From: Candidatus Hydrothermales bacterium
GTDB taxonomy: Bacteria; Hydrothermota; Hydrothermia; Hydrothermales; JAJRUZ01
Reading direction: 5' to 3'
DNA length: 64,000 nt
NCBI GenBank assembly: GCA_039630575.1
Contig: JBCNUW010000004.1
Location: forward strand, 32,001 to 96,000
Notes under the pieces: generated by a model
Databases searched by the model: none
Told to the model about the DNA's origin: nothing
What the model saw: the letters and a program-made list of their open reading frames with translations, nothing else
Translations under genes and position numbers: made by a program
Shown: one piece after another, positions 9,541 to 64,000 of the stretch
How the letters are laid out: every line of letters begins with the position of its first letter
Position numbering within the stretch: position 1 is the first letter of the stretch

Positions 9541-9553
9541 GGGTTCAATACCC
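9541..9553 (+). promoter_or_regulatory. T-arm-like leader hairpin, copy 1
   Basis: GGG-TTCAATA-CCC; core ends 22 nt before ATG 9575; TAAAAT 11 nt upstream. Confidence 0.65.
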
Positions 9554-9574
9554 TAAATAGATTGCAGGTATAAA

Positions 9575-9844
9575 ATGAGATTAAAATTAGCCCTTTTATT
9601 AGGGTTTACATTTTTGGCCCTAATTCTAAACTGTGCTCCAAAAATGGCTTCAAAGGAAACACTACAGAGAATTGAGGAGCTTAAGGCTCAAATAGAGAAA
9701 ATTAATTCGGAAATTGCTGCCTGTGAAGAAGAAAAGAAAAATCTTACAGCAAAAAAAAGTGAAAAGATTAAACTAATCGAAAAACTGAAAGTAGAGAGAG
9801 ATTCTTTAAGAACCCTTCTTGAGCTTATAAAACAGGGATATTAA
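9575..9844 (+). CDS. Small coiled-coil lipoprotein
   Basis: Lipobox-like ILNC followed by heptad repeats. Confidence 0.75.
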   Translation: MRLKLALLLGFTFLALILNCAPKMASKETLQRIEELKAQIEKINSEIAACEEEKKNLTAKKSEKIKLIEKLKVERDSLRTLLELIKQGY

Positions 9845-9856
9845 GGGGAGGGGAAA

Positions 9857-10438
9857 ATGAAAAAATTATTTATAATTCTTTCATTTACTTTTTCTCTTTT
9901 AGCTCAAGAAAAATTGACTGAAGAAAAAGCCAAAGCACAAATTGTTGAACTTCAAAATCAAATTGAAAAGTTAAAGGAAAGTTTAAATTCATGCCAGAAA
10001 GAACTCGAAGAGATGAAAAAAGAGCTTTTGCCTCTCGATAATGAAATTACTTCAATACAGAATGAAATAAATTCTCTAAAGAATGAGTTAGCTAAGTATC
10101 CATCTGAATATGAAGTTAAAAGGGGTGACTTCCTTGCAAAAATAGCAGCATACCCTTTTATATATGGAACTCATAGGGCATGGCCAAGAATCTGGAGAGC
10201 AAACAGAGATTTGATCAAAAATCCTGATCTAATTTACCCTGGTTGGAAATTAAAAATACCACACGGACTTGACAAAACATACACTGTTATAAAAGGCGAT
10301 TACTTATGGAAGATAGCAGCATTCTGGTGGATCTATAGGGATGGAAGAAAGTGGAAAGCAATTTATGAGGCAAACAAGGATAAAATAAAGGATCCAAACA
10401 TTATATACCCTGGACAGGAATTCATAATTCCAAGATAA
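9857..10438 (+). CDS. Secreted coiled-coil protein with two LysM domains
   Basis: Signal peptide, coiled coil, YEVKRGD..IYPG and YTVIKGD..IYPG. Confidence 0.9.
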   Translation: MKKLFIILSFTFSLLAQEKLTEEKAKAQIVELQNQIEKLKESLNSCQKELEEMKKELLPLDNEITSIQNEINSLKNELAKYPSEYEVKRGDFLAKIAAYPFIYGTHRAWPRIWRANRDLIKNPDLIYPGWKLKIPHGLDKTYTVIKGDYLWKIAAFWWIYRDGRKWKAIYEANKDKIKDPNIIYPGQEFIIPR

Positions 10439-10477
10439 AGAAAAAAATAAATACATATAACATCTTTACATTTATGT

Positions 10478-15327: not shown

Positions 15328-15336
15328 AATAAAATT

Positions 15337-15642: not shown

Positions 15643-15655
15643 TAAAATTTCAAAA

Positions 15656-17577: not shown

Positions 17578-18570
17578 TTATTTTTTCCCCTCAAGTTCAC
17601 TTGCTTTTTTAAGAGCCTCAAGGGCTTCTTTATTTTTTCCCAACCTTGAGTAACAATCAGCAATCAGCTTATATATTTCTGATTTTTCTTTCAAAGACAA
17701 AGATTTTTTATAGTATTCCAACGCCTTTTCATAGCTATTTGTTAAATGATAGGCTCTACCAATATACTCATAAACATCTGCCTCTTCAGGATTCTTTTTG
17801 GCATATTTTTCGAAATAGGCTATTGACTCCTTATATTTTTTTGAAAGAAAGTTTGAAAAGGCAATATTAAAAAGATAATTTATATTTGACGAATCTGATA
17901 AGTAAGCTTCCTTAAAAAATTTTTCTGCCTCTTCATAATTTCTTTTATTTGAATATATTTCACCCAACAATCCATAAAACTTTGACTTTAACTCTTTATT
18001 TATTTCTTTACCTATGTTATTCTTTGCTATTTCTTCAGCTTTATCTGGGTTTTCTTCCATGTAAAACCTAGCAAGGTAATAGGACATAAGAATATCATCC
18101 TTTGCTCTTTTTTGTCCCTCTTCGAGAGTTTCTTTTGCCCTTTTTGCATCACCTTTACTTTGATAAAAGGCAGCAAGATTGATATAAATTTTTGGACTAT
18201 CTGGTTCAATTTCTTTTAATTTTTCAAAACATTTTATTGCAAAGTCATAATTTTTTTCTTGGTTTGCAACAATTCCAGCGTTAAAAAGGGTTGTTTTATC
18301 AATGTCTTCAAGTTTTTTCTTTAATCCCATATCAAAAGATTTAAAAAGATAATTAGCTCCCTCAACATACTTGTTTGTTAAAGTATAGGCTCTTGAAATC
18401 CATAAATATGGTTCAGGGTTTTTTGGCTCTGACTTTGCCCACTTTTCAGCCTCTTCAATCATCTTCTCAAAATTCTGTTGTTGCATATAAATTTTAACTG
18501 CTGTTGAATGAGGATTTGCTGCACAATAAAAAAATATAATTGAAATTAAAAATCCCAATGATTTTTTCAT
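17578..18570 (-). CDS. TPR-repeat putative lipoprotein
   Basis: Hydrophobic N-terminus plus Cys; many TPR helices. Confidence 0.8.
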   Translation of the reverse strand: MKKSLGFLISIIFFYCAANPHSTAVKIYMQQQNFEKMIEEAEKWAKSEPKNPEPYLWISRAYTLTNKYVEGANYLFKSFDMGLKKKLEDIDKTTLFNAGIVANQEKNYDFAIKCFEKLKEIEPDSPKIYINLAAFYQSKGDAKRAKETLEEGQKRAKDDILMSYYLARFYMEENPDKAEEIAKNNIGKEINKELKSKFYGLLGEIYSNKRNYEEAEKFFKEAYLSDSSNINYLFNIAFSNFLSKKYKESIAYFEKYAKKNPEEADVYEYIGRAYHLTNSYEKALEYYKKSLSLKEKSEIYKLIADCYSRLGKNKEALEALKKASELEGKK

Positions 18571-18588: not shown

Positions 18589-18605
18589 TTTGGAGTAGAA
18601 CCAAA
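18589..18605 (-). promoter_or_regulatory. T-arm-like leader hairpin, copy 2
   Basis: TTTGG-TTCTACT-CCAAA; core ends 21 nt before ATG 18570; TATAAT 12 nt upstream. Confidence 0.65.
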
Positions 18606-19979: not shown

Positions 19980-20639
19980 TTAAGCTCTCTCCAACTTTTC
20001 GAATAACCTATAACCTATTTTATACCTCAATAAAAATAAAAATAAAAATAAAAATAAATATGGTATAAAACTCAAAAATAAAGCAATCCTCATAGAAGGT
20101 GTGATCAATACATCTCCGGGAGTAAAAGGTGAGGGATGAACTGATCTCCACAACTTAACTGAAAAATAAACAAAAGGAACATCTACATAAATTATTACAC
20201 CTAAAACAGAGGAAAATCTAGCTCTTTTATCTGGTGTTTCAATAAATCTCCTCAAAAGTAGATATGAGGAATAAAGAAAAAACAAAATAAGAGTTGTTGT
20301 TAATCTTGGATCCCAAACCCAGTAATGTCCCCAAACAGCTTTTGCCCATAACATTCCTGTTATAAGTGTGAGAAAATTATATAAAACTCCAATCTCAGCA
20401 GCACTCTCTGAATAAATATCCAACTTCAAATCCTTTTTAAAAAGATATAGGATACTAAAAAGAAAAACTAAAGTAAAAGAGATCATAGAAACCCAAGCTA
20501 ATGGCACATGAATATACATTATTCTAACAAGATCACCCATATTTCTTTCTGGTGGAGTAACAAAAAGAGAAAAATAAAAGATTATATAACCTGTAATTAA
20601 ACCAAAAATTAAAAGAAAAAACTCAACCTTTATTTTCAA
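19980..20639 (-). CDS. ccmC: Cytochrome c biogenesis heme exporter CcmC
   Basis: YIHVP, WAKAVWGHYWVWDPRLT, WRSVH. Confidence 0.92.
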   Translation of the reverse strand: MKIKVEFFLLIFGLITGYIIFYFSLFVTPPERNMGDLVRIMYIHVPLAWVSMISFTLVFLFSILYLFKKDLKLDIYSESAAEIGVLYNFLTLITGMLWAKAVWGHYWVWDPRLTTTLILFFLYSSYLLLRRFIETPDKRARFSSVLGVIIYVDVPFVYFSVKLWRSVHPSPFTPGDVLITPSMRIALFLSFIPYLFLFLFLFLLRYKIGYRLFEKLERA

Positions 20640-23531: not shown

Positions 23532-23535
23532 AAAG

Positions 23536-23548
23536 AGGTTGAAATCCT
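23536..23548 (+). promoter_or_regulatory. T-arm-like leader hairpin, copy 3
   Basis: AGG-TTGAAAT-CCT; core ends 24 nt before ATG 23572; TTGAAA-18-TATAAT ends 11 nt upstream. Confidence 0.55.
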
Positions 23549-23571
23549 ATCTTTAAAAATTTTTATTAAAA

Positions 23572-28780: not shown

Positions 28781-29758
28781 TTAGTTTTTTTCGAGCATTT
28801 CTTCAACATTAACTCCAACTTTAGATCCTTTTCCACCAAAAATGGAACCTTTTTTTACTTTCTTAATTCTATCTAGTGCTAATTTATATGCTTTATCTGA
28901 AAGAGGAATATAACCAACCTCTTTTACGATCTTTTTTGCGTTCTTAAGATAAAATTCGAGAAACTTTTTGACTTCCTCTTTTTTTAAAGAATTCACGTTT
29001 ACATATATAAAAAGAGGTCTTGAGAGGGGAAAGTATTTACCCGTCATGATATTTTCAATTGTGGGGGCAATTGGACCTCTTCCATCTTCAGGATCTATCT
29101 TAACTGCTTTAAGCTTATCTTTATTTTCTTCATAGTATGCAAAGCCAAAATATCCAAGAGCTAAAGGGTCACTGCTAACTCCTTGGACTAAAACATTGTC
29201 ATCTTCAGATGCTACAAAATCACCCCTTGAAGAACCTTCTTTACCAACAATTGCTTCTGTAAAATAATCGTAAGTTCCTGAATCTACACCAGGTCCATAA
29301 AGGTTTATATCTTTATCTGGAAAATCATTTCTAACCTGCGACCACTTTTTGACTTTATCTTGAGCTTCTGGTTCCCACAATTTTTTAAGCTCGCTTACCT
29401 TAAGTTCATTACACCATGTGTTAGAAGGATGAACAACAACGGTCAAACCATCATAGGCTATAGGAATTTCAATAAACTCTATTTGATTTTTTTGGGCATT
29501 TTCAATTTCAACCTCTTTTATAGGTCTTGAGGCGTTGTTAATATCAATTTCATTCCTTAAAAATTTTTTGAAACCTCCACCTGTTCCAGAAATTCCAACA
29601 ACTACTTTAATATCTTTGTGTACTTTTTGAAACTCCTCAGCAACAGCCTCTGTTATAGGAAAAACAGTACTGGAGCCATCTATGTAGATCATCTTTTCAG
29701 AAAGCAGAATTCCTTTTATAAGAGCCAATAAAGTGGCTCCTTTTAAAAATTTACTCAT
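28781..29758 (-). CDS. pstS: Phosphate ABC transporter substrate-binding protein
   Basis: DGSSTV, SGTGGG, ASR, DSGT, LSRPLF. Confidence 0.95.
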
Positions 29759-29782
29759 TTATACCTCCTTGATTAACTTTTT

Positions 29783-29797
29783 AAGGAATTGAACCTT
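29783..29797 (-). promoter_or_regulatory. T-arm-like leader hairpin, copy 4
   Basis: AAGG-TTCAATT-CCTT; core ends 26 nt before the pstS ATG. Confidence 0.65.
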
Positions 29798-29823
29798 TTA
29801 TTTTTTAATTTTTAATCTCTATG

Positions 29824-29862
29824 AATTAAAAATTCTTTAAGGTAGAGTTAAAAAATTGTTAA
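29824..29862 (-). promoter_or_regulatory. Pho-box-like array
   Basis: TTAACA, TTAACT, TTAAAG, TTAATT at exact 11-bp period upstream of pstS. Confidence 0.65.
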
Positions 29863-29871
29863 ATATAAATT

Positions 29872-32800
29872 TTATTCAACTAAACTCTCAACGCTTTTTT
29901 CTCCGAAAAGCTCGTTTATTTCATTAAAAAAATCTTCATTAAATGGAACCTTATACAAAAGAGATTTATATAGCCTTTTTTTATCTCCTAAATTTAAAGA
30001 GAAATATAAATCGAATTTCCCCCTATATTTATTTATTGTTTCTTTTAATTTCTTTATTTTATCTTCATTTAAATCTGAGTGATTTAATTTCACCACGATT
30101 CCCTTTAACTTTCTTAAAATTGCTTCCTTAATTGGTAAAATTTCTTTAACTATTACTCTTGAAGAACCTTGTAAAACCTCACCCTCTAAGTAAAAGGGCT
30201 CTAATTTCTTTATAAACTTTTCAACTTTACTTTTTAAATCTTCAAATAAAATGACTTCAAAGGAACCTTCAAAATCTTCAAAATGTAAAATATAATAATT
30301 TTTTCTGTCACTGCTAACCTTTGTTTCAATTTTATTTAAAGCCCCACACATTCTTACATTTTTAAACTCAACATCCTCCTCTAAAAGATCCATCGATGTA
30401 TGAGTTGAAAGAACTTGTACAAAATCTAAATAGGGATCTAAGGGATGGTTTTTAAAATATAAATTAAGAACCTCCCTCTCCCACTCCATAACTTTAATAG
30501 GGTCTCTTTCTTTTAAGTTATCACTTTTCGCGAATTTAAAAAGAGAGGGTGCTTCCTTTGTTTGGAATCTATTTTCAAAGAGATTCATTAATTTTTCTCT
30601 GTCAGGCTCAAACACATCAAAGGCTCCAGCCTTTATTAAAGCTTCGATCACTTTTCTTGTAACCTTTTTTGAACTTGCCCTTTTAACAAAATCATCAAAA
30701 GATAAAAAAGCTCTTTGATTTCTTAATTGAATAATATGCTCACAAGCTTGAATACCAACATTTTTGATTCCTAAAAGTCCATACCTTATTTTATTTTCAT
30801 CTTCAACTTTAAAAAGCTTATCGGATTTCAAAATACAAACAGGTAAGATCTCTACACCATCTTTTTTTGCTAATTGAACAAAATATGAGAGTTTTTCAAT
30901 CTTGTTTATCTCACCATTTAAAAGTGCTGTGTAGAACTCTGTTTTAAAATTTGCCTTCAAGTAAGCAGTAATATACGAGAGAAGAGCATAACCAGTGGAG
31001 TGAGATTTATTAAAAGCATACCTTGCGAAAGAATAGATTTTATAAGCCATATCTCTTGCCATTTCTTCCTGAATACCTCTTTCAACCATACCATCAACAA
31101 ACTCTTTCATAATACTCTCACTCATAAGCTCTTCCTTTTTCTTTCCCATTGCCTTTCTCAATATATCTGCCTTTGCAAAGGAAAAACCAGCTAACTCATG
31201 GGCTATGAGCATAACCTGTTCCTGATAAACAACAAGTCCAAAGGTCTCCTTTAAAATTTTCTCGAGTTTATCATGAGGATAACTAATAGGAACAAGACCT
31301 TTTTTCCTCTTTACATACTCCTCTGTTGTTCCTGCCCCAAGAGGCCCAGGTCTGTATAAAGAAAGTATGGCAATAAGATCCTTAAAATCGTCAGGTTTTA
31401 ATCTCTTTAGTAGCTCCCTCATTCCCCTTGATTCAAGCTGAAAAACTCCCTGTGTTTTACCTTTTGATAGAATCTCAAAAGTTTTTTTATCATCAAGGGG
31501 TAAGTTGTAAGGATCTATGATAATATTTTTTTCGCTTAACATTTTTAACGTTTCCTCGATAACAGTTAAGGTTTTAAGTCCTAAGATATCTATTTTTAAA
31601 AGTCCAACAGATTCAAGAGAATTCATCTCATACTGGGAGCATACTGTTCCTTTAGAATCAGAGTAAAGTGGAACATAATCTGTAATTTCTGAAGGAGCAA
31701 CAACCACACCAGCAGCATGAACTGAAGCATGTCTTGCGAGTCCCTCAGCTTTTTTTGCATATTCAAAAATTTTTCTATAATCTTCATTTTCATCTATCAA
31801 TTTTTTAAAAACTGGATTCTCCGAATATGTTTCTGATAAAGTACTTTCAGTACACTCCCTAGCGAGTCTATCAACATATGAGTAATCGTAACCTAAGACT
31901 CTTCCCATATCCCTTATGGATTGTCTTGCTTTCATTCTTCCAAAGGTAATTATCTGAGAAACATTCTGTTCACCATATTTTCTTTTTATATAGGATATAA
32001 CCTCATCTCTCTTTTCGTCTCCAAAATCAATATCCACATCTGGTGGAGAAATTCTTTCTGGATTTAAAAATCTCTCAAAAAGCAAATCATATTTAATAGG
32101 ATCTATATTTGTAACTCCTAGTGAATATAAAACAAGCGACGAAACAGCTGACCCTCTTCCCGGTCCCACTGGAATTCCCTTACTCTTCGCAAAATCTACA
32201 ATATCTTTTATAATCAAAAAATACCCTCCAAAATTAAGCTTTTTAATTATTTCAAGCTCCCTTTCCAATCTATCAATATACTTTTTCTTTACCTCACCTT
32301 TAAACTTTTCATTTAAACCCTTATAACTAAGATACTTTAGATATTCAAAAGTATCATCAAAATCATGTGGAATTTGAATTTTTGGAAGATAAAAACCTTT
32401 ATCCAATTTAAGTTCTAAATCTATGGTCTCAGCAATTCTAACTGTATTTAATAATGCTTTTTCATCGTAACTAAATATTTCTCTCATCTCCTTTTCAGTT
32501 TTAAAGTAAACCTCCTTAGTTTTAAATTTAAACCTATCCTCTTCCTTCAAAGTCTTTCCAGTTTGAAGAGCTAAAATTGCTTCATGAAAGTTATGCTCAT
32601 CTTTTTCAACATAATGAACATCATTTGTTGCCACATATAAAAGATCATATTTTTTTGCTAAACTGTAAAGAAATTCATTTACTATTATATTTTCTTCAAG
32701 ATTTAGATCCATAAGTTCAATCACACAATTTTCTCTTCCAAATATATCTAAGTAAGTTTTTAAAAGTTTCTCCGCTTCATCTTTTCTATCCTGTAAAATC

Positions 32801-34800: not shown

Positions 34801-34815
34801 TTTCTTTTAATTTTT

Positions 34816-34832
34816 AAAGGCTTTGAACCCTT
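34816..34832 (-). promoter_or_regulatory. T-arm-like leader hairpin, copy 5
   Basis: AAGGG-TTCAAAG-CCTTT; core ends 18 nt before ATG 34800; TTGATA-18-TAAAAT ends 8 nt upstream. Confidence 0.65.
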
Positions 34833-34895
34833 TTATGATTTTAAATCAATTTGAAGTTTATTATCAAATCCTTTATAATTTAAACTTTATAAATA

Positions 34896-38398: not shown

Positions 38399-38424
38399 AG
38401 AGCTTAAAATATAAGTATTAAATT

Positions 38425-40277: not shown

Positions 40278-40310
40278 AAAAAAATAATTTAGAAATTATA
40301 ATTAAAAATA

Positions 40311-40383
<73 letters not shown>

Positions 40384-40396
40384 TTCCAATTTCTCT

Positions 40397-41239: not shown

Positions 41240-42307
41240 AAGATAAAGATAGTTAGAAGTACTTTCACCCCTTAAAATACAGGCACTTTCACTCCCTGTA
41301 ATCCCTATAAAAACAACGTCTTCATCAATATGTCTTAAGATTTCAAGTAAATAGTTGCAGTTAAATCCTATTTCTATCCTTTCACCTTCATAGAACCCCT
41401 TTAATTTCTCATAGCCTTCTCCTATTTCACCAGAAACAGCTTTTACTGTAAGTGAGTCAGGCGAAAGTGAAAATTGAATAGGATTGTTTGGTGGTGATGT
41501 AAAGATGTGAAGTCTTCTTAAAGTTTCCATCAAATCCTGTTTTGAAATTTTTAAATTGTTTGGTACATCAACAGGGATAACTGCTCTATAATCTGGAAAC
41601 TTATCGTCAACGAGGTTAACTATTTCGTATCCATTGCTGAAATTAAATTGAATTTTTGTATCTGAGAAAAGTATCTTTATTTGCTCTTTTTTGTAATTTT
41701 TTAAGAAGTCAAAACTTTTTGGGTCAACTAAAAAATTTCCCTCTAATCCATTATTCTCTATTTCTATATCATAAACTCCAAGTCTATGAGAATCAGAAGA
41801 CACAATAGAAAGCCTTTTTCCTTTTACATCAAGTAAAATGTTATTTAAAAACTGTCTTGAATCATTCTTTGCTACACAGAATGAAACTTTTTCCACACCC
41901 TCTAAAATAATATCTGATGAGATAGTTATTTCATTTTTTCCTGTAACCTCCTCAACTAAAGGAAATTCCTCTGCTGGTTGAATAAAAAAACTGTACTGTC
42001 CTTGTGAAGTGTAAATTATAAGCTCTCTTTCTTCTTTTTTTTCTATTAAAATTTTTTCATTCTTAAGCCTTGAAGTTATTTCCTTTAACTCCTTTCCCCT
42101 TACACATAATGCTCCTTCTTCCTCAACCTCTACTGATCCCTTAACTTTTAAAGAAAAGTTCAGGTTTGTTGAAAAAAGACTAAGTTCATCTCCTTTTGCT
42201 TCTAATTTAATATTTTCTAGAATTGGTAAAGCTGCTCTAGACGGAACTGCATGGTATACACTTTCAATCATTTTCAAAAATTCATCCTTTGTTATTCTAA
42301 ATTTCAT
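41219..42307 (-). CDS. dnaN: DNA polymerase III beta clamp
   Basis: SDSHRL, FPDY, GFN, LMPIR. Confidence 0.95.
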   Translation of the reverse strand: MKFRITKDEFLKMIESVYHAVPSRAALPILENIKLEAKGDELSLFSTNLNFSLKVKGSVEVEEEGALCVRGKELKEITSRLKNEKILIEKKEERELIIYTSQGQYSFFIQPAEEFPLVEEVTGKNEITISSDIILEGVEKVSFCVAKNDSRQFLNNILLDVKGKRLSIVSSDSHRLGVYDIEIENNGLEGNFLVDPKSFDFLKNYKKEQIKILFSDTKIQFNFSNGYEIVNLVDDKFPDYRAVIPVDVPNNLKISKQDLMETLRRLHIFTSPPNNPIQFSLSPDSLTVKAVSGEIGEGYEKLKGFYEGERIEIGFNCNYLLEILRHIDEDVVFIGITGSESACILRGESTSNYLYLLMPIRI

Positions 42308-42325
42308 AAATTAAAAGTTCATTAT

Positions 42326-42338
42326 AGGATTTGAACCT
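42326..42338 (-). promoter_or_regulatory. T-arm-like leader hairpin, copy 6
   Basis: AGG-TTCAAAT-CCT; core ends 19 nt before the dnaN ATG. Confidence 0.65.
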
Positions 42339-42339
42339 C

Positions 42340-42470
42340 ATTTTAATAAAAAATATATAAAATAATTATAATGTTAAAGATGTGGAAATTTAAAACAGCA
42401 AGTAATTTAAGTCAAAAGCTTCTTGTGGAAAGTTTGTGGAAAGAGCATATCCTTGTTTATCCACATAAAA
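42340..42470. other. oriC: AT-rich tract plus DnaA boxes
   Basis: TTATCCACA 42457-42465; TGTGGAAA-type boxes at 42381, 42424, 42435; pure A/T tract next to them. Confidence 0.8.
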
Positions 42471-42471
42471 T

Positions 42472-43794
42472 TCACATTCTTTTTAACATTTTCTCTATAT
42501 CAAAAATTTCATTTTTTAATTTCTCATCTTTGTTTAATAAACTCTCAACTTTTTCTATTGCATGGAGGACAGTGGTATGGTCCTTCCCAAAAAATCTTGC
42601 AATTTCCACTATGGGCATGTTGAACACATTTTTCATAATAAACATACTTATCTGTCTTGCCTGAACAAGTTCTTTCTTTTGTTTTTTACTCATTATTTCA
42701 GTCTTTGGTAAGTTATAATATTCAGAGACAGTCATTAGAACATCTTGAGGATCATTGGCTAAAGCTTTTGAGAATATATCACTCAAAAACTTATGTGCCA
42801 AGGTTAAGTTGATCTTTATGTTTTTTGATGATTGAATTGCATAAAGTTTAACTATACAGCTTTCGAGTAGCCTAACATTTTTTTTAACATTCTTTGCAAT
42901 CAACTCAAGAACATCATCTGAAACTTCTAAACCCCTCTCTTGTGCCTTTAATTTTAAAATAGCTAGCCTTGTTTCATATTCGGGTGGTTTTATGTCAGTT
43001 ACAAGACCCCATGAGAACCTGTCTACCAATCTTTCAGCAATGTTGTCGAGTTCCCATGGTGCACGGTCTGCTGTAAATACTACTTGTTTTTTTTCATTAT
43101 AAAAGGAATTAAAGATGTGAAATAGAGCTTCCTGAGAAAAATCAGCTCCAGCCAAAAAATGGATATCGTCAATTAATAGAATTTCAAAGGTTCTAATCTT
43201 ATTTCTAAATTCATTCATTTTTCTTCTTTGAATAGCATCTACAATTTTAGAAATAAGGTCTTCAGATGTAATTAATAAAATTTTTGCATTTCTCTTTCTT
43301 TTTAAAACATCGTTTCCAATGGCATGGAGTAAATGAGTTTTACCAAGTCCTACCCCCCCATATATAAAAAAGGGATTATACTCACTACCTGGAGCATGGG
43401 CAACAGCTCTTGCTGCTGTATAAGCCATTTCATTATTTTTACCAGTTACAAAATTTTCAAAAGTATACTTTGAATTTAAACCATACCCTGAAACTTCATT
43501 ACTTAATTCCTTTACCTCCATTACAGTATCTTTTTCCTCATCTTTTTTTTCATCTTTCTTTACTTCATATACAAGTTTAACCATAGGATAGCCAAGCTCC
43601 ATAAGTACTCTTTTTAGCTTCACATCAAATACCTTCTGCATTATACTTAACACATAACTATTGTCACAGATTATTCTCATCACATGATCAGGCTCAAGAT
43701 CTCCTGCCTTTACCTTTTCAAAAAATTTATACTCATTATCAGATAATTCTGTTTTTAACTTTTCCTTCATAAGATCCCATAATTTCATCCTCAT
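42472..43794 (-). CDS. dnaA: Chromosomal replication initiator DnaA
   Basis: YNPFFIYGGVGLGKTHL, IDD, DHTTV; start moved to ATG 43794 behind AAGGAGG. Confidence 0.97.
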   Translation of the reverse strand: MRMKLWDLMKEKLKTELSDNEYKFFEKVKAGDLEPDHVMRIICDNSYVLSIMQKVFDVKLKRVLMELGYPMVKLVYEVKKDEKKDEEKDTVMEVKELSNEVSGYGLNSKYTFENFVTGKNNEMAYTAARAVAHAPGSEYNPFFIYGGVGLGKTHLLHAIGNDVLKRKRNAKILLITSEDLISKIVDAIQRRKMNEFRNKIRTFEILLIDDIHFLAGADFSQEALFHIFNSFYNEKKQVVFTADRAPWELDNIAERLVDRFSWGLVTDIKPPEYETRLAILKLKAQERGLEVSDDVLELIAKNVKKNVRLLESCIVKLYAIQSSKNIKINLTLAHKFLSDIFSKALANDPQDVLMTVSEYYNLPKTEIMSKKQKKELVQARQISMFIMKNVFNMPIVEIARFFGKDHTTVLHAIEKVESLLNKDEKLKNEIFDIEKMLKRM

Positions 43795-43819
43795 TTTAAT
43801 TCCCTCCTTGGTATTTAAT

Positions 43820-43905
43820 TTTTCCACAAAGATTTCCACAAATTTTTTTATAAAAATTTGTCTCTATATGAGAAAAATACTTAAATTTGTGAAAAAATTT
43901 CCACA
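43820..43905. promoter_or_regulatory. DnaA boxes upstream of dnaA
   Basis: TTTTCCACA 43820, ATTTCCACA 43832 and 43897. Confidence 0.7.
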
Positions 43906-44069
43906 GGCAGTTAAAATAATACTTTTCAAAATTTTCCTCTAAATCAAGTTTGTTTGAAATTTTTGAAATTAATTCTTCTATCTTTTTGTTTTGTTCCATA
44001 GTAGTTAATTAATAAAGTCTAAGTACATTCTTTGTCAAATAAAATTACCGGTTTCTTATAATTTTAAAA

Positions 44070-45224
44070 ATGAAAGAAAAAAACTTTCTATATGGTAAAG
44101 ATGATGAACTTTTGTTCCTTTTTAATAAGGTTACTGAGATTGAGGATCAAAGAATAAAGGAGTTTGAGAGATTTGTTAAAAGTTTGCCGTTATATTCACC
44201 TGAAGAACTATTTAAGCTTCTGGAAAAAGAGGGTTATAGAGGGCAAATAGAAGCAAGAAAAATGGTCTGTGTAGCAATTTATAGGCATCTTAAGAGAATA
44301 AAGATGATTTACGAAAATAGAATTACCCCAGAGCTCCTGCCAGAGAAAGTAAATTATATATTTATAGGTCCTACAGGTTCTGGTAAAACCTATATAGTAG
44401 AGCTCCTTTTCGGTAAAATCTTGAGAATTCCTTATGTGATAATTGATATAACAAAATACAGTGAAACAGGATATGTAGGCGAGAATGTGATAAATATTCC
44501 TTACAAATTGATTGAGGCAGCAAGAGGTAATAAATATTTAGCTCAAATTGGTGCGGTAATAATTGATGAGTTCGATAAAATTGCAGGATCTCCTAGTAAT
44601 TTAAGATTTGCTGGAGCAGGGACACAAAAGGATGTCTCTGGTTATGGAGTCCAAAGGGAGCTTCTAAAACTTCTTGAGCATAAAATATTTGAATATGGTG
44701 AGGATCATAATGTAGAAGGAAGGATAAATACAAGAGAAATACTTTTTATTGCCCTTGGATCCTTTACTGGCTTTATAAGAGAAATAGAAAGAGATAATAT
44801 AGGATTTTTAAAGGAAATTGACGAAAATGAAAACATAATAGCATACAAATTAAAGGGACAAGAGGAGGATCTTAACAATTTTTTAAAATACGGTTTTTTG
44901 CCAGAACTTATTGCAAGATTCCAGAGAATAATACCTTTTGAAGCCCTTGATAAGAATACTCTTAAAGATATACTTGATCTTAAATTAGAAAAATTAATAA
45001 ATGAATTCAAATTAGAAGGATTTGATCTTGTTCTTACTGAAAAGGTAAAAGATCTAATGGTTCAAAAAGCCCTTAAAAAGGGAACAGGAGCAAGAGGAAT
45101 AGAAAGTGAGCTTTTAAAAGAGCTTGAAAAAGTTGCCTTTAAGATATTCGGTAAAAATAAAAAGGGTAAAGTTATAATTAATAGTAATAAAGATAAGATA
45201 GAGTCTAAAATAATTTTTAAATAG
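44070..45224 (+). CDS. ClpX-like AAA+ ATPase without N-terminal zinc finger
   Basis: GPTGSGKT, ETGYVG, IDEFDK, DVSG.GVQ, IGF, PELIAR, GARG. Confidence 0.85.
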   Translation: MKEKNFLYGKDDELLFLFNKVTEIEDQRIKEFERFVKSLPLYSPEELFKLLEKEGYRGQIEARKMVCVAIYRHLKRIKMIYENRITPELLPEKVNYIFIGPTGSGKTYIVELLFGKILRIPYVIIDITKYSETGYVGENVINIPYKLIEAARGNKYLAQIGAVIIDEFDKIAGSPSNLRFAGAGTQKDVSGYGVQRELLKLLEHKIFEYGEDHNVEGRINTREILFIALGSFTGFIREIERDNIGFLKEIDENENIIAYKLKGQEEDLNNFLKYGFLPELIARFQRIIPFEALDKNTLKDILDLKLEKLINEFKLEGFDLVLTEKVKDLMVQKALKKGTGARGIESELLKELEKVAFKIFGKNKKGKVIINSNKDKIESKIIFK

Positions 45225-46149
45225 GACTTTTATACAGAAAAGAAAACTTTTTTTGGGAAATCTTTGCCTCTATGTCTCCCCTTTTTAATCTTGAGACTTC
45301 ACCATCAAGTTGTATTAAGGAGTCTTCCTTTAATGATAGTTTTAGATCTTTTGTTTTAAAGTACAAACATTCTGGTAGAGAAAGGTGTGTTCCTTTGATT
45401 ACATGATGTAGTTTTTTTAAAACTTCAGTCTTTTTCATATTTTTGATTATGCAAACAGAAATCTCTTCTTTAAAAGGAGATGCATCAGGAAATAGGTGAA
45501 AGCCTCCACCAAGATATTTACCTAATCCAAGTCCTAAAAGAATGTACTTTCCCATCAGATAATTATTATCGTCTTTTATTTCCATTTCATATGATATGTT
45601 ACCTTTCAGTTCGATTAAAAGGGAAAGTAGGTATCTTAGTAAACCTCTTAAGTTTTTAATTCTAAGTGCTCTCTCTGCGATTTTGGCATCAAATCCAATA
45701 CCAGCTGCATTGGTAAAAAGTAGTTTTCCCTCTTTTGTTATTATTTCTCCAGTAAAGCTCTCCATAACGATCCCTTCTTTAAAAACTTCGTAAAAGAAAT
45801 TTAGATCTTTCTTTTTTCCAAAAATAGTCTTAAGAAAATCGTTACCAGACCCAGAAGGAAAAAGACAGAAGGGTATTTTGAAATCAAAAGGTAAGTTATT
45901 AACAATGTGAAAAAGAGTTCCGTCACCTCCCAGAACAATAATTTTATGAACCCCTTTTTCCTTTAATCTTAAAAGATTTTCTTTTATATTAATCTTTTTT
46001 TCCAGTTTCTCAACATAATATTTTAATTTATCTATCCTAAGTCTTTCTTTTAGCCACTTTAATACCTCAAAAGATCTTCCAGAACCTGAATAGGGATTGA
46101 AAATTACACCTACTTTAATCCCTTTTCTCTTCTTTTTGTGATTTTTCAA
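45217..46149 (-). CDS. Diacylglycerol kinase family lipid kinase
   Basis: NPYSG, GGDGT, GSGNDF, GIGFDA, QLDGE. Confidence 0.9.
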
Positions 46150-47128
46150 AAATTTCTTTCTTTAGCTCTTTTTCTATTTCACTAAAGAGAGTTTGATTTT
46201 CTTCAAATAATTTTCTCACGTTATCTTTTCCTTGTCCCAACTGTTTTCCTTTGTAGGCATACCATGCTCCTGATCTTTGAATTATACCTTTTTCAACTGC
46301 AAGATCAATTAGTTCACTCTCCTTTGAAATTCCTTTACCGTAAAGTATATCAAAAGTTGCCTCTTTAAAAGGTGGAGCAAGTTTATTTTTTACTACTTTC
46401 ACTTTAACTCTGTTTCCTATTACTTCATCATCTACCTTTATTGTTTCAACTTTTTTTATTTCAAGTCTTAAAGAAGCATGAAACTTTAAAGCCAACCCTC
46501 CTGGTGTAGTTTCTGGATTACCATACAACACTCCGATTCTGTGTCTTATCTGATTTATAAAAATTGCGCAAGTTTTTGATTTATTTAATACACCCGCCAG
46601 TTTTCTCATAGCTTGGGACATGAGTCTTGCCTGTAAACCCACATGGGATTCTCCCATTTCTCCCATTATTTCAGCTTTAGGTACAAGGGCTGCCACTGAA
46701 TCAACGACTATTAAGTCAACTGCTCCTGATCGTACCAAAGTTTCAGCTATCTCCAAAGCCTGCTCACCTGTATCTGGTTGAGAAATCCACAGTTCCGATA
46801 GATTCACTCCAAGTTTTTCAGCGTATACTGGATCAAGTGCATGTTCTGCATCTATAAAAGCTGCAATTCCGTCTTCTTTTTGAACTTCTGCTATCGCATG
46901 AAGTGCAAGGGTAGTTTTTCCTGATGCTTCAGGACCATATATTTCTACTATTCTTCCTCTAGGATATCCACCTATTCCTATAGCAAGATCAAGAGAAATT
47001 GAACCTGTAGGTATTACAGGGACTTTTATAAGTTCCCTTTCACCAAGTCTCATTATAGCACCTTTACCGTGAATTTTCTCTATCTGTTTTATTGCTAAAT
47101 CCATTGCTTTTTTCCTTTCATCTTTCAT
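46115..47128 (-). CDS. recA: Recombinase A
   Basis: [22 protein letters not shown]; start set at MKDERKK. Confidence 0.98.
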
Positions 47129-47130
47129 TT

Positions 47131-48372
47131 TTAACCCTCGAACTTTTTGAATAAAAGAGAGCAATTATGTCCTCCAAAACCAAAAGAATTTGAAAGTGCG
47201 TATCTTATCTTTACTTCTCTTGCTCCATCTTTTACATAGTCAAGGTCACACTCAGGATCAGGATATTCAAGGTTTATTGTAGGGTGAACTTTTTGATGAT
47301 ATATAGCAAGAACGGTAACTCCAGCTTCTAAGGCTCCTGCTCCTCCAAGTAAGTGTCCCACCATACTTTTTGTTGAATTTACAGGTATCTTATAGGCTCT
47401 CTCCCCCAGAAGTCTCTTTATTGCTAAAGTTTCAGCTACATCCCCTCTGGGTGTTGCTGTTCCATGGGAATTTATATAGTCTATTTCTTTCGGATCCAAA
47501 GAAGCACTATCACAGGCCATTTTCATTGACCTGTAAGCTCCATCTCCATCAACACAAGGAGCAGTTATGTGGTATGCATCAGCAGTTGCTCCATATCCGA
47601 CGAGTTCAGCATAAATCCTTGCTCCTCTTTTCATAGCACTTTCTTTTTCTTCGAGTATAAGTACAGCACATCCTTCACCCATAACAAATCCGTCTCTTAA
47701 CTTATCAAAAGGTCTTGAAGCCTTTTCCGGCTCATCGTTTCTTGTTGATAATGCTTTCATGTTACCAAAACCCGCAAGTGCAATCGGAGTTAAAGGTGCT
47801 TCTGAACCTCCAACTACTATAGCCTTAGCATGTCCGTTTTTAATAAGTAGCATAGCTTCACCAATAGCATGGGCACTAGAAGCACAGGCAGAAACAACTG
47901 AAAAATTAGGACCTTTAAATCCATATTTAATCGAAATAACACCAGATGCTATATCTGGTATCATCATAGGTACAAGAAAGGGAGACACCCATTTAACACC
48001 CTTCTCATACATTTTTCTAATCTCTTCCTCTAATGTAATTATTCCACCTATTCCAGATGAGATTATGACTCCCACATCTTCCCCTTTGTAAGGAATACCG
48101 TTAGCCCATCCTGCATCCTGTAAGGCTTCCTCAGTCACATAAAGAGAGTATACCGTAAAAAGATCCTGTTTTTTTATCTCCTTACTAGATAATCTTTCTT
48201 CTGGATTAAAATTTTTTATTTCAGCTGCAATTTTTGATGGTAAATTTGAAGTATCAAATCTTTCTATCCTCGAGACCCCACTTTTACCCTTCAATAAATT
48301 CTCAAAATTTTCATCTTTATTTTTACCCAGTGATGTAAGTATTCCAATTCCAGTTACAACTACTTCCTTCAT
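47131..48372 (-). CDS. fabF: 3-oxoacyl-ACP synthase II
   Basis: SACAS, HGT, GHLLG, NSFGFGG. Confidence 0.96.
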
Positions 48373-48605
48373 GTTTTTAGTTTATTTTGAATATACTCAA
48401 CTGCATCTTTTACTGTTCTGATTTTTTCAGCATCTTCATCAGGAACTTCAATTCCAAATTTTTCCTCTATCTTCATAACAAGCTCAACTACATCTAAAGA
48501 GTCAGCACCTAAATCCTCTTGAAATCTAGCTTCCATTGTAACTTGTTCTGGAGTTACATTCAATTCTTCTACAATTATGTCTCTCAGAGTTGCAAAAACA
48601 TCCAT
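48369..48605 (-). CDS. acpP: Acyl carrier protein
   Basis: DLGADSLD. Confidence 0.97.
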
Positions 48606-48627
48606 TAAAATTCCTCCTTTTTATTAC

Positions 48628-48640
48628 TGGAATTGAACCA
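48628..48640 (-). promoter_or_regulatory. T-arm-like leader hairpin, copy 7
   Basis: TGG-TTCAATT-CCA; core ends 23 nt before the acpP ATG; TTGCTT-18-TAAAAT ends 12 nt upstream. Confidence 0.65.
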
Positions 48641-48698
48641 TTTGAAAATAAATTTTAATTTTATTAAAATATAAAAAGCAAGTTAAAGAAAAAATCAA

Positions 48699-48782
48699 GC
48701 CGGGGTGACGGAACCGGTAGACGTAGGGGACTTAAAATCCCCTGGGGGAGACCCCGTGCGGGTTCGAGTCCCGCCCCCGGCA
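48699..48782 (+). tRNA. tRNA-Leu(TAA)
   Basis: GCCGGGG acceptor, GGGGA-CTTAAAA-TCCCC, long variable arm, GGTTCGAGTCC. Confidence 0.95.
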
Positions 48783-48792
48783 GGCTATACAG

Positions 48793-49059
48793 ATGGCTTC
48801 TCGTAAAATTTTCACAATAAGAAATGTCATTGCCGTTATCCTTGCAGGAGCTCTAGGTGATATTTTAGGTGTTATTCTCAAAAACTTTATACCAAAATCT
48901 CCTGCAAGGGATGTAATACTTTACAGTTCAAAGGTTGGTTTAGAAGAACTAAAAATTAATCTCATTATAATAGATTTTAAATTTGGATTTATTCTCTCAA
49001 TTAACATATTATCTTTTGTTCTTATTTTTCTTATGATATATCTTTTACAAAAAATTTGA
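48793..49059 (+). CDS. DUF4321-like small membrane protein
   Basis: TM-loop-TM pattern with INL..FKFG..INI. Confidence 0.65.
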   Translation: MASRKIFTIRNVIAVILAGALGDILGVILKNFIPKSPARDVILYSSKVGLEELKINLIIIDFKFGFILSINILSFVLIFLMIYLLQKI

Positions 49060-59387: not shown

Positions 59388-59445
59388 ATTTTTAAATAAT
59401 TTTAATTATAATTTTTATGAAAATGGCCTCTACCAATAAAAATAC

Positions 59446-59474
59446 TTGACAAAGTTTCTTTTTGATGTTATAAT
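59446..59474 (+). promoter_or_regulatory. Consensus sigma70 promoter of hup
   Basis: TTGACA-17-TATAAT with TG extended -10. Confidence 0.85.
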
Positions 59475-59483
59475 AATTTATAA

Positions 59484-61387: not shown

Positions 61388-61388
61388 T

Positions 61389-62114
61389 TTAGAATAAAAC
61401 CTGACAGTTTTCACAGAAATAGGTTTTTCTTTTTGTTTTTCCCGTCAATTTTAATTTAACCTTTTCTTTACAAATCTTACAATATTTTTTTCCGTAGATT
61501 AGAAGATAATTTTTTAGTGATTTTTTTGATTTTCTTATATTATAAAAAAGTCTAGAAAAGGAGATGGTTTCTTTAATCAAATTTTCTATATATTCCTCTT
61601 CTATTTTTTTACCTACACTTAATGGATGAACTTTAGCTCTGAAGAGTGCTTCATTTTTAATTATGTTTCCAACACCAGCAAAAATTCTTTGATCTAAGAG
61701 GAGGTCGCAAATGAACTCCTTTGAATTAATTATCTTTTTTTTCGTCTTAAGAATGTCAAATTGTTTTTTCATTATATCAGTACTCGGATCGAAAATGAAA
61801 TCTTCCTTGTTTAAAATTCTAATTGATGTGTTGTAAAAATTTATAAAAGTATCATTAAATTTTATTGATAGTCTCTCTTTCTTTTCCTTTTCTATTTTAT
61901 TAATCCTTATCGAGCCGTACATCAAGAAATGGATTATAAGGTAAAAAAAATCAAATTCAAATATTAAATATTTGCCATGGCTTTTTATATCTATAATTTT
62001 TTTTCCTAAAATTATTTCCTTATTTTCACGAGTATTTCCTTTGACCTCTAATGGAGTTTTTCCCTTTAGAAATTTTAATCTTTTTGCTATGAGGAAGACA
62101 CAAGGTCCCTCCAT
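61389..62114 (-). CDS. Fpg/Nei family DNA glycosylase-like protein
   Basis: HGK, H.LMYG, LLDQ..AGVGN, C-terminal C4 zinc finger. Confidence 0.88.
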   Translation of the reverse strand: MEGPCVFLIAKRLKFLKGKTPLEVKGNTRENKEIILGKKIIDIKSHGKYLIFEFDFFYLIIHFLMYGSIRINKIEKEKKERLSIKFNDTFINFYNTSIRILNKEDFIFDPSTDIMKKQFDILKTKKKIINSKEFICDLLLDQRIFAGVGNIIKNEALFRAKVHPLSVGKKIEEEYIENLIKETISFSRLFYNIRKSKKSLKNYLLIYGKKYCKICKEKVKLKLTGKTKRKTYFCENCQVLF

Positions 62115-62143
62115 AAAGTTATACTGCTACTTTTAAAAAAAGC

Positions 62144-63016
62144 TTAATTTCTATTTATATAAAAAATTGAAAAAGCTGATGAAAAAGAGGTATATGCAAC
62201 AAGTCCTAAGTTAAGAATTAACTTTGATATTATATTTATTGAATTGTGCTTTTTAAAAAATTTAAAAATAGATTTTCTTAGATAATGTTCAGATTTTAGA
62301 CCCAAGTATTTCCTTGAGCCTCCATGAAAATGAATAATTTTTATATCTGGAGCATATAAAACTTTATAACCTCTTTTTCTAATTCTCAAGCATAGATCAA
62401 TATCCTCAGCAAATAAAAAAAATTCTTCATCAAAGCCTCCTACATCTTCAAAAGTTTCCCTTTTTATAGCTACAAAGGCACCTAAAACAGCTTCTACTTC
62501 ACGTGGTTTTGTTTCTTTTTCAAGATCAAGGTAGAGAAATTCTCTCGTTATTGGATTATTTTTTAAAATGAAAGATCCGATTGATTTCCTTCCGAATAAA
62601 AGATATTTAAATCTTGGGTATCTTCTGCAGCTTGGTTGATAAGTTCCATCAGGATATTCTAATTTTGATCCAAGAATTCCAAGGTTTTGTTCTCTTTCAA
62701 AATACCCTTTTATCTTCTCAAATGTCCCTTGTGGGATAATTACATCAGCGTTAGAAAAAACAAGTATTTTACCCTTAGAAATTTTTGCCCCATAATTACA
62801 TCCACCCCCATAACCGAGATTTTTCGTATTTTTAACATATTTAAATTCAGGAAAAATTTTCTTTGCCTTTTCTATAGAATTGTCAGTGGAGTTGTTATCA
62901 ATCACTATAACTTCAAACTCTTTTTCTTTGTTAAAAGTATTTAATTTTATCGATCTTAAGGTGTAGGTAAGGTAATCTCCACTATTAAAATTAACTATAA
63001 TTATAGAGAAATTCAC
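62144..63016 (-). CDS. Glycosyltransferase family 2
   Basis: DNNSTD, NAD, GGFDE.FF..EDID. Confidence 0.9.
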   Translation of the reverse strand: MNFSIIIVNFNSGDYLTYTLRSIKLNTFNKEKEFEVIVIDNNSTDNSIEKAKKIFPEFKYVKNTKNLGYGGGCNYGAKISKGKILVFSNADVIIPQGTFEKIKGYFEREQNLGILGSKLEYPDGTYQPSCRRYPRFKYLLFGRKSIGSFILKNNPITREFLYLDLEKETKPREVEAVLGAFVAIKRETFEDVGGFDEEFFLFAEDIDLCLRIRKRGYKVLYAPDIKIIHFHGGSRKYLGLKSEHYLRKSIFKFFKKHNSINIISKLILNLGLVAYTSFSSAFSIFYINRN

Positions 63017-63387
63017 TTTTCCTCTTTATGCTTTGTATCTTTAATTAGTTTTTCGTCCATTAAGCATTTACCATTAAATGTTACACCATCCTCTACAATT
63101 AGACCCTTACAGTAGACTTCTCCTTCAAATCTTGCATTTTTTTCAAAGTGAGCCTTTCCATCAACTATCAATTTACCAATAAAAGTTCCACCAACTTTTG
63201 CATTTTTAGCCCTTACATCCTGAGCTTTGACTTTTCCGCTTGCTCCTATGATTAATATATCCTTTGTTTCAATGTTTCCCTCAAATTCTCCATCAATTCT
63301 TACTCCACCTTTTGCCTTTATTTCTCCTTTTAATTGAGTTGATTCACCTATATGAGTATCCAGCTGTGGATGAGGTTCCTTGTTCAT
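63013..63387 (-). CDS. Bactofilin (polymer-forming cytoskeletal protein)
   Basis: IG..GEI..RIDG.FEG beta-helix repeats, FNGKC. Confidence 0.9.
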   Translation of the reverse strand: MNKEPHPQLDTHIGESTQLKGEIKAKGGVRIDGEFEGNIETKDILIIGASGKVKAQDVRAKNAKVGGTFIGKLIVDGKAHFEKNARFEGEVYCKGLIVEDGVTFNGKCLMDEKLIKDTKHKEEK

Positions 63388-63400
63388 TTTTTAAAATTTT

Positions 63401-64000
63401 TTAAGGAATTGAACCTAAATTTATCTCTGTAAATTTTGAAAGTTCCTCTAAAATGATATTTTTTATTTCCTCCATTTTTTCAGGTGTTTTTCCCTCAAAT
63501 CTAAGAACAAGGACGGGTTGAGTATTAGAGGCTCTCACAAGACCAAAGCCATCCGTAAAATTTATTCTTACACCATCTATGTCAAGAATTTTAAATTTCT
63601 TCGAAAATTTTTTCTTCAGTTTCTCAACAACTTTAAACTTATGTTCGTCTGGGCATTCAACTCTTATTTCAGGTGTTGAATAATAAAAAGGTATTTCATC
63701 AACAAGTTCATGAACCTTTTTCTTAAATGTGTCAACTACTTCTAGGAATCTTAGGGAAGCATAAATAGCATCATCAAATCCATAGAATCTATCACTGAAG
63801 AAAAGATGCCCTGACATTTCTCCTGCAATTGGTGCACCCTCTTCTTTAAGTTTAGCCTTTATTAGAGAATGCCCTGTTTTCCACATTATGGGTTCACCTC
63901 CAATTGACCTTATGTATTCGTAAACTCCCTGCGAGCATTTTACGTCAAAAATAATCTTACTTCCTTTTTTTTCTTCTAAAACTTTTTTCGATAAAATTGC
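63401..64000 (-). CDS. Phosphomannomutase/phosphoglucomutase, 5' part outside window
   Basis: KTGHS, GEMSGH, DGVR, RASNTQP. Confidence 0.92.
   Translation of the reverse strand, partial: AILSKKVLEEKKGSKIIFDVKCSQGVYEYIRSIGGEPIMWKTGHSLIKAKLKEEGAPIAGEMSGHLFFSDRFYGFDDAIYASLRFLEVVDTFKKKVHELVDEIPFYYSTPEIRVECPDEHKFKVVEKLKKKFSKKFKILDIDGVRINFTDGFGLVRASNTQPVLVLRFEGKTPEKMEEIKNIILEELSKFTEINLGSIP
63404..63416 (-). promoter_or_regulatory. T-arm-like leader hairpin, copy 8
   Basis: AGG-TTCAATT-CCT; core ends 17 nt before the bactofilin ATG; overlaps the last codons of the upstream gene. Confidence 0.55.

Follow-up and report, generated by a model that had tools for sequence, protein, structure and literature searches.

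The stretch of DNA analysed here, the window, comprises 64 kb (64,000 nucleotides, nt) of a Candidatus Hydrothermales bacterium (contig JBCNUW010000004.1, positions 32,001 to 96,000), and its main subject is a small hairpin, resembling the T-arm of a transfer RNA (tRNA), that recurs ahead of the start codons of diverse genes. The search pattern GGTTNNANNCC matched the window 14 times, whereas dinucleotide-preserving shuffles gave 5.33 matches on average (standard deviation 2.04, maximum 11), and none of 100 shuffles reached 14. Eight of these matches are T-arm-mimic hairpins, each on the sense strand ahead of a start codon, with the loops TTCAATA, TTCTACT, TTGAAAT, TTCAATT (three times), TTCAAAG and TTCAAAT. 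The remaining six matches comprise three in called tRNAs, one at position 50, which is the T-arm of a tRNA-Ser truncated by the window edge, and two within coding sequence, at 878(−) and 28905(−), with loops that are not of the TTC type. An earlier note on this DNA had listed the eight copies, and their coordinates, strands, loops, outer pairs and spacings all proved to be as claimed. Its scan by eye had found no other complete copy outside the tRNAs; a relaxed scan of the window indeed gave no additional good hairpin copy, but the two matches in coding sequence had been missed.

Two copies lie on the forward strand (distances are given from the end of the core, and the pair outside GG/CC is given for each). 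The first, at 9539..9555 (core GGTTCAATACC, 9542-9552; pair G-C; 22 nt before the ATG at 9575), precedes an open reading frame (ORF) of 89 amino acids without a Pfam family and then a gene for a LysM protein (9857-10438); its upstream neighbour is a divergent ATP-sulfurylase gene. The second, at 23534..23550 (core GGTTGAAATCC, 23537-23547; pair A-T; 24 nt before the ATG at 23572), is the sole window copy with a G at position 56 in tRNA numbering, lacks a Shine–Dalgarno (SD) site and follows an upstream ORF that ends at 23531. It precedes the gene of a subtilase (S8) protease in which a weak Por_Secre_tail match was found.

The other six copies lie on the reverse strand. The hairpin at 18589..18605 (core GGTTCTACTCC, 18592-18602; pair T-A; 21 nt before the ATG at 18570) precedes a TPR protein gene (17578-18570) followed by an argF-type carbamoyltransferase gene; a co-directional DegT aminotransferase gene ends upstream at 18616, and an SD (AAGGAG) is also there. 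At 29782..29798 (core GGTTCAATTCC, 29785-29795; pair A-T; 26 nt before the ATG at 29758), the copy precedes a gene for a PstS-like phosphate-binding protein, with an SD (AAGGAGG) between hairpin and start. The copy at 34816..34832 (core GGTTCAAAGCC, 34819-34829; pair G.U, G.T in the DNA; 18 nt before the ATG at 34800) has no SD and stands before the gene of a 316-amino-acid protein without a family (33850-34800), followed by purN and dnaE. Similarly without an SD is the copy at 42324..42340 (core GGTTCAAATCC, 42327-42337; pair A-T; 19 nt before the ATG at 42307), which precedes dnaN, with dnaA upstream; the sister-family orthologue of dnaN has AAGGAG instead. The copy at 48626..48642 (core GGTTCAATTCC, 48629-48639; pair T-A; 23 nt before the ATG at 48605) precedes acpP and then fabF, and an SD (AAGGAGG) is present too. 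Finally, the copy at 63402..63418 (core GGTTCAATTCC, 63405-63415; pair A-T; 17 nt before the ATG at 63387) precedes a bactofilin gene without an SD and overlaps the last codons of an upstream phosphoglucomutase-family gene (stop at 63401-63403).

We then considered the whole assembly (1.886 Mb, 95 contigs, 30.3% G+C, 46 tRNAs), in which gene starts were called by simple in-house ORF rules and SD classes were assigned as string matches. On the sense strand, 111 of the 1659 called starts have the exact pattern ending 15–36 nt ahead of them, most often at 17–25 nt, compared with 17 antisense matches in the same upstream regions and 3 matches of the control pattern GGAANNTNNCC in that zone. The genome-wide element that the earlier note had supposed is thus enriched by position and strand far beyond chance. 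Scoring with a weight matrix at a cut-off of at least 16 bits gave 147 non-tRNA sites, and for 124 of them a start codon followed by 40 or more codons of open frame lies 14–41 nt downstream on the sense strand; the element marks about 7% of genes. The other 23 sites comprise 12 antisense within genes, 5 sense within genes and 6 intergenic; three of the intergenic sites end, by eye, like the 3′ ends of transfer-messenger RNA (tmRNA) or tRNA, and an ARAGORN tmRNA call covers one. Many sites first scored as lying in genes or in other intergenic DNA actually precede short genes or better starts, among them those of L34, L32, L35, a cold-shock protein and acpP.

Which genes carry the element? We named its targets through their orthologues in G041, the one complete genome (2.06 Mb, 19 contigs) that represents the sister family in the orthologue comparisons; NCBIfam names were obtained for 64 orthologues, 6 of 70 being skipped. 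Translation-related products account for 12 of the 64 (EF-Tu, S1, S8, S12, S15, S20, S21, L32, L35, IF3, EF-P and HPF). Other housekeeping targets are DnaK, a CspA-type protein, an HU/IHF-type protein, RpoA, DnaN, AcpP, Hsp20, bacterioferritin and glutamate dehydrogenase, and there are further many enzymes of central metabolism, PilC and CheY-type regulators. The target set is not one regulon and is rich in highly expressed genes, as far as expression level can be told from gene names. In the window as well, the downstream genes are those that the earlier note had guessed and are functionally diverse, in agreement with its view that they do not form one regulon.

Is the conserved unit an RNA structure? 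Across 115 copies, the first, second and third flank pairs are complementary in 83, 69 and 63 cases, compared with 54.8 ± 3.8, 52.8 ± 4.7 and 44.9 ± 4.3 when the partners are shuffled, whereas flank pairs 4–6 show no excess over shuffles. These numbers indicate a stem of up to 5 base pairs (bp) that carries a 7-nt loop, with the outer flank pairs formed in only 55–72% of the 115 copies. Furthermore, in an alignment of 29 sequences (the 8 window copies and 21 from syntenic loci of five related genomes), the covariation score was 0.192 against 0.117 ± 0.024 for shuffles, and none of 500 shuffles scored as high. Of the 29 aligned sequences, 26 form the first flank pair, with four pair types, and about half form the outer pairs. 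The RNA hairpin that had been proposed from the window copies is therefore upheld by covariation of its flanks.

This covariation bears directly on a reading at the level of DNA, in which the motif would be a promoter element or a transcription-factor site for strongly expressed genes. Such a signal would be consistent with the strict orientation relative to the gene and with the position ahead of highly expressed genes, and a transcription start just past the motif would give short SD-less leaders. However, the flanks covary as base pairs and the loop is asymmetric, and the sequence is identical to the consensus T-loop of the tRNAs in the same genome. No second conserved motif was found at a fixed distance upstream, each of the positions −55 to −5 carrying at most 0.16 bit, so that the element does not have the two hexamers at fixed spacing of a sigma-70-type promoter; many promoter-proximal copies are preceded, at distances that vary, by ordinary −35/−10 boxes. 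Moreover, the position is fixed to the start codon, also in operons and inside upstream coding sequence. We therefore regard a DNA-level signal as very unlikely.

The conserved positions of the hairpin are those of a T-loop. When the sites were anchored on the loop only or on GG-N7-CC only, the same motif was obtained, which shows that the invariant positions do not stem from the search pattern itself. For a loop fixed as TTCNANN, 120 sites have GG..CC as closing pairs and 6 have AG..CT, all others being at background; with the GG-N7-CC anchor, 134 of 167 sites in the peak zone read TTNNANN, and the other 33 are mostly register shifts, only 2 being U55-to-C-like. In tRNA numbering, G53, U54, U55, A58 and C61 are invariant, and C56 is found in 103 of the 115 copies (~90%). 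The element thus has, as far as sequence (in which geometry is not visible) can tell, the U54, U55, C56 and A58 of a T-arm in a 7-nt loop closed by G53-C61. The canonical T-loop, G-TTC-R-A-N-N-C, is found in all 46 tRNAs of the genome, and their most frequent loop, TTCAAAT, is also that of the elements (20 of 46 tRNAs and 37 of 124 elements). On the other hand, the purine at position 57 is not kept: a pyrimidine (T/C) stands there in 22 of the 124 elements but in 0 of the 46 tRNAs, which argues that no D-loop-like partner is involved. A D-arm-like partner was looked for near the element and none was found, and alternative pairing or a pseudoknot with nearby sequence showed no excess (downstream 36 against 36.2 permuted; upstream 41 against 32.4, maximum 44).

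Could the loop simply be a docking site for the enzymes that act on T-loops? In such a reading, TruB, TrmFO and/or TrmI would bind and modify the leader (pseudouridine, 5-methyluridine, 1-methyladenosine), as a modification-dependent control or as a titration of the enzyme. The invariant G53, U54, U55, A58 and C61 together with the ~90% C56 fit the GUUCNANNC consensus of TRUB1/Pus4 targets in mRNA as given in the available excerpts of PMC5340967, and the element has the features of the TruB/Pus4/TRUB1 substrate rule (GUUCNANNC, 7-nt loop, stem of at least 2–3 bp) drawn from the excerpts of PMC5340967 and PMC13492117. According to the latter excerpts, E. coli TruB acts in vitro on GUUCNANNC stem-loops with stems of 3–12 bp (PMC13492117). 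The genome has genes for TruB, for a GCD14/TrmI-type enzyme and for TrmFO, and the pyrimidines at position 57, which speak against a D-loop partner, are as expected for enzymes of isolated T-arms. However, the sister family, which lacks the element, has single copies of these enzymes as well, so that the family restriction described below would be unexplained, and modification alone explains neither the spacing to the start codon nor the loss of SD sites. As the main role of the element, enzyme docking therefore seems unlikely to us; it could coexist with the role in translation initiation that we favour below, since a fold stabilised by modification could be the one that is recognised. Pseudouridylation of the leaders is plausible in view of the in vitro activity of TruB and of the TRUB1/Pus4 targets, and it could belong to the mechanism or compete with it as an explanation.

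The spacing between core and start is 20.8 ± 2.9 nt where no SD-like site is present (n = 85) and 26.5 ± 4.7 nt where such a site lies between them (n = 39), the distance from element to SD being widely variable. About 90% of the spacer between hairpin and start is A/T, and position −3 is A in 69%. As many as 43 of the 124 copies sit tightly between co-directional genes, where they abut or overlap the end of the upstream gene; the earlier description as a leader element holds for the majority, but not for these 43, which are no 5′ leaders. A −10-like box 8–17 nt upstream was found in 6 of the 43 tight intercistronic copies compared with 21 of the 38 copies that face a divergent gene, which leaves 37 of the 43 without a promoter-like box. 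The element is tied to the start codon rather than to the transcription start.

For the promoter-proximal copies, the transcription start can be placed approximately. An exact TATAAT was found within 60 nt upstream in 42 cases, and 21 of these fall 8–16 nt before the core, where about 2 are expected (control genes, ~0.2 per bin, nine bins); the motif is thus transcribed and lies near the 5′ end. This invites the explanation that the hairpin is a stabiliser or processing mark of the mRNA, which, standing at the 5′ end or forming it after cleavage, would block 5′-end-dependent decay, perhaps by a tRNA-like end, the spacing being set by the abutting ribosome footprint. By the TATAAT peak, only a few nt would separate the 5′ end from the stem, the targets are highly expressed genes, and the minimum spacing of ~17 nt corresponds to the upstream edge of the footprint of a ribosome. 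However, a stabiliser needs a stable stem rather than a fixed loop, and here five positions of the loop region are invariant while the stems are weak, often of 3 bp. It would also leave unexplained why SD sites are preferentially lost at element genes and why the spacing is tighter in SD-less genes, and in the 37 tight intercistronic copies without a promoter-like box the 5′ end would have to be made by an unknown nuclease. We consider it improbable that stabilisation is the general function; a 5′-end stabiliser is possible for the promoter-proximal copies.

To define the taxonomic range, the start-anchored pattern was counted in 272 WOR-3 genomes. All 6 genomes of the window's family, which represent two genera, contain 56–118 matches each, whereas the other 266 contain 0–15; among these 272 genomes, the element is restricted to one family, whose members are uncultured bacteria of hot springs. 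Counts are slightly raised in the sister family, where the matches listed look like 3′ halves of tRNAs (a G+C-rich, acceptor-stem-like sequence follows) and then run into A/T-rich DNA, one being ambiguous. In viral contigs, the matches listed in a pattern scan are scattered, mostly single and not element-like in look.

Within the family, the element is retained at orthologous sites ahead of pstS, dnaN, acpP and the 316-amino-acid gene across the six genomes, while the stems and the variable loop positions differ. The pstS copy is kept in 4 other family genomes, and the dnaN and acpP copies in all 5 others; conservation in orthologous leaders is thereby confirmed in five other family genomes. 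The orthologous site of the 316-amino-acid gene is occupied in 4 family genomes and lost in one, G047. In this genome (locus L133, the orthologue of 33850-34800), the element and spacer are gone and the ATG stands directly after the conserved upstream sequence, which makes it a natural deletion case. Conversely, an extra element with an SD lies in the region syntenic to 29000-49000 of the window in three related genomes (L134:1601-1621, L135:16328-16348 and L136:7386-7406) and has no counterpart in the window's genome, which indicates that elements have been gained or lost between species. The assembly G045 (67% complete) contains two 16S genes, L007 (G045:C8) and L012 (G045:C39), of which one is typical of its own family and the other 95% identical to that of the window's family; this suggests a mixed bin.

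The comparison with G041 also allowed us to ask what stands at the starts of orthologous genes. ORFs in both genomes were called by the first ATG, ignoring SD sites, and reciprocal best hits with aligned N-termini gave 1183 pairs with 700 comparable starts, or 683 after genes right after a tRNA were dropped; a strong SD was defined as GGAGG, AGGAG or AAGGA. The G041 orthologue has a strong SD in 62 of 70 element genes compared with 191 of 613 other genes (Fisher p = 5e-21). When only genes that are SD-less in the window's genome are considered, a strong SD stands before the G041 orthologue in 41 of 46 element genes against 77 of 407 others. Seen from the other side, among genes whose orthologue has a strong SD, 41 of 62 with the element lack an SD here, compared with 77 of 191 without it (odds ratio 2.9, p = 4e-4). 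The gene of EF-Tu illustrates the exchange, as it is preceded here by the element without an SD and in G041 by AAGGAGG. SD loss is thus more frequent at element genes, although such genes would be expected to keep a strong start signal.

In three family genomes, the 3′ terminus of the 16S genes reads GGATCACCTCCTTTC, and the anti-SD is intact and canonical in both families. The element is not an SD in another guise. Its core, GGTTCAAATCC for example, is not complementary to the 3′ tail of 16S, its conservation sits in the loop, and in SD-less genes its core ends 20.8 ± 2.9 nt from the start, whereas an SD is usually spaced 5–10 nt from it.

What, then, is the hairpin for? It is observed to follow a rule of position and strand, to covary, to be restricted to one family, to occur in operons and to be associated with SD loss. 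The explanation towards which we lean, with modest confidence, is that it is a cis-acting RNA signal for SD-independent translation initiation. Of the four functions that the earlier note had proposed, the SD loss relative to the sister family favours ribosome recruitment or translation initiation, and stabilisation and modification take the place of unlikely rivals. In the mechanism that we propose, a hairpin with the loop U-U-C-N-A-N-N, closed by G53-C61 and G52-C62 plus at most 3 variable pairs, would be held ~18 nt of A/U-rich, unstructured RNA ahead of the start codon. In the path of the mRNA through the 30S subunit, ~18 nt upstream is just outside the mRNA exit. The hairpin would there recruit or position the small subunit without SD/anti-SD pairing, and its reader would be a partner with specificity for the T-loop fold, either part of the ribosome (at the mRNA exit or platform) or a protein that binds the tRNA elbow or T-arm. 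In this family, the genes with the highest expression would have the element as their strong start signal. A fuller version, which we hold only tentatively and would rate somewhat below an even chance, is that of a self-contained ribosome-recruitment signal read via the T-loop fold (by the tRNA-elbow surface of the ribosome or by an elbow- or T-arm-binding factor) that originated within a single thermophilic family, where it took the place of the SD at the most highly expressed genes (tuf, rpsA and infC among them).

Several findings weigh against a role in initiation. The replacement is not strict, since 39 of the 124 copies retain an SD-like site. SD loss is common without the element too (77 of 191), and strong SDs are rarer genome-wide here, at 23% compared with 37% in G041 (683 pairs), so that part of the association could come from general drift combined with the high-expression class of the targets. 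The rarer SDs and the 77 element-less losses with an intact anti-SD point to a general shift away from SD-led initiation. The TATAAT sites 8–16 nt before the core put the hairpin a few nt from the 5′ end, which fits a 5′-end stabiliser too. When the 8 window copies were folded with nearest-neighbour energies at 37 °C, the hairpin did not stand out (z between −1.6 and +0.5); given such weak folding, the hairpin of a thermophile would need a T-loop tertiary fold, modification or a bound partner. Finally, TruB, TrmI (GCD14/TrmI-type), TrmFO, S1 and S21 are single-copy in both families, and no family-specific reader was found among them.

The search for a reader of the proposed initiation signal was extended to further candidates. 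A TrmA-type methyltransferase and S1-domain proteins have equal copy numbers in both families. A stand-alone tRNA_bind (Trbp111/CsaA-like) protein was rejected, as it occurs in only 2 of the 6 element genomes and also in several WOR-3 families without the element; the two proteins with this domain, of 113–117 amino acids (G049:C1:53431-53718 and G046:C30:34221-34508), have no counterpart in the window's genome. A screen for domains gained relative to G041 gave only start-calling artefacts; 347 ORFs here have no relative in G041, and 533 have none in the reverse direction. The 16S rRNA was likewise set aside, since no complement to the element was found in it and its fixed differences, mostly from A/T to G/C together with a variable helix lengthened by 2 nt, offered no interpretation.

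Some differences between the ribosomes of the two families were seen in passing. A variable hairpin of 16S (columns 886-916) is 2 nt longer and has more G+C in the element family (L008, L009 and L011 compared with L004-L007 and L010). The overall G+C of 16S is 62–64% in the element family against 59–61% in the sister family, which hints at a higher growth temperature in the former. The S21 of three element genomes (L286, the rpsU of G000:C13, with L283 and L284) ends in ...LQEK(L/I)KK, 4–5 residues beyond that of two sister-family genomes (L282 and L285); S21 is situated near the anti-SD and the mRNA exit. In the window, aside from these subjects, about five copies of a TTTTTA-like, T-rich unit of 5–6 nt were noticed at ~20020-20062 (−), near the end of the ORF 19980-20639.

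In the fuller, tentative version given above, the hairpin would join SD pairing, leaderless starts and A-rich S1-dependent leaders as one more way in which bacteria mark starts. If the initiation signal that we favour is real, it would mean that a tRNA-like tertiary motif, rather than 16S pairing, can recruit bacterial ribosomes. The switch would be recent enough for comparison with a sister family that uses SD sites, providing a natural system for the evolution of start-site selection, for tRNA mimicry in cellular rather than viral mRNAs and for the question of whether defined sites of bacterial mRNAs are acted on by tRNA-modifying enzymes. In these genomes, gene callers guided by SD motifs will place starts wrongly. 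As an orthogonal, heat-tolerant expression signal, the element could also find practical use.

How does the element compare with known systems? The earlier note had regarded it as matching no described element, and our searches agree: with 4227 Rfam families at the gathering score, only 3 tRNA genes were matched in the whole window, and a full-text literature search gave no description of it. In the excerpts available of the GeneMarkS-2 preprint, only unclassified weak signals are mentioned.

With an SD site, the element shares a constrained distance upstream of the start, the sense strand and a position before independently translated genes, and it sits at genes whose orthologues use strong SDs. 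It differs in lying 17–25 nt from the start, in being structured rather than single-stranded, in lacking complementarity to the 16S tail and in standing together with an SD in 39 of 124 cases. A second comparison is with the SD-independent initiation of Bacteroidota, which have A-rich leaders and an anti-SD that is present but little used. Similarly, the 16S anti-SD is kept here though many genes are SD-less, the spacer is A-rich and A is frequent at −3. To our knowledge, no conserved structured element has been described for initiation in Bacteroidota, whereas here a specific hairpin marks about 7% of genes.

The closest likeness in structure is to the T-arm of tRNA (positions 49–65) and its T-loop motif, with which the element shares the 7-nt loop with U54, U55, C56 and A58, the pairs G53-C61 and G52-C62 and a stem of at most 5 bp. 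Unlike a T-arm, the element stands alone in an mRNA, without acceptor, D or anticodon arm; its outer stem pairs are A/U-rich and often missing, and it keeps a fixed distance to the start codon. Among hairpins of mRNAs, the nearest counterparts are those with GUUCNANNC and a 7-nt loop that TRUB1/Pus4 modify in eukaryotes, as reported in the excerpts of PMC5340967. Both are T-arm-like stem-loops within mRNA with the same consensus, and bacterial TruB acts on minimal stem-loops in vitro. On the other hand, these hairpins are described, in the excerpts at hand, as targets of an enzyme, with no rule relating them to a start codon, no genome-wide family in a bacterium and no link to SD loss.

In genomic behaviour, the element is best compared with the SAS/ESAS of Cluster K mycobacteriophages, a 13-bp sequence, GGGATAGGAGCCC, with an SD core, 3–7 bp from the start according to the available excerpts of PMC3203893. 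As described there, SAS is likewise a short, oriented, conserved sequence before many unrelated starts, with a proposed part in translation initiation and a reader that is unknown. Both sequence and spacing differ from those of our element, however: SAS is phage-borne and contains an SD core, whereas the element is cellular, mimics a T-loop, has no SD core and stands ~20 nt away from the start.

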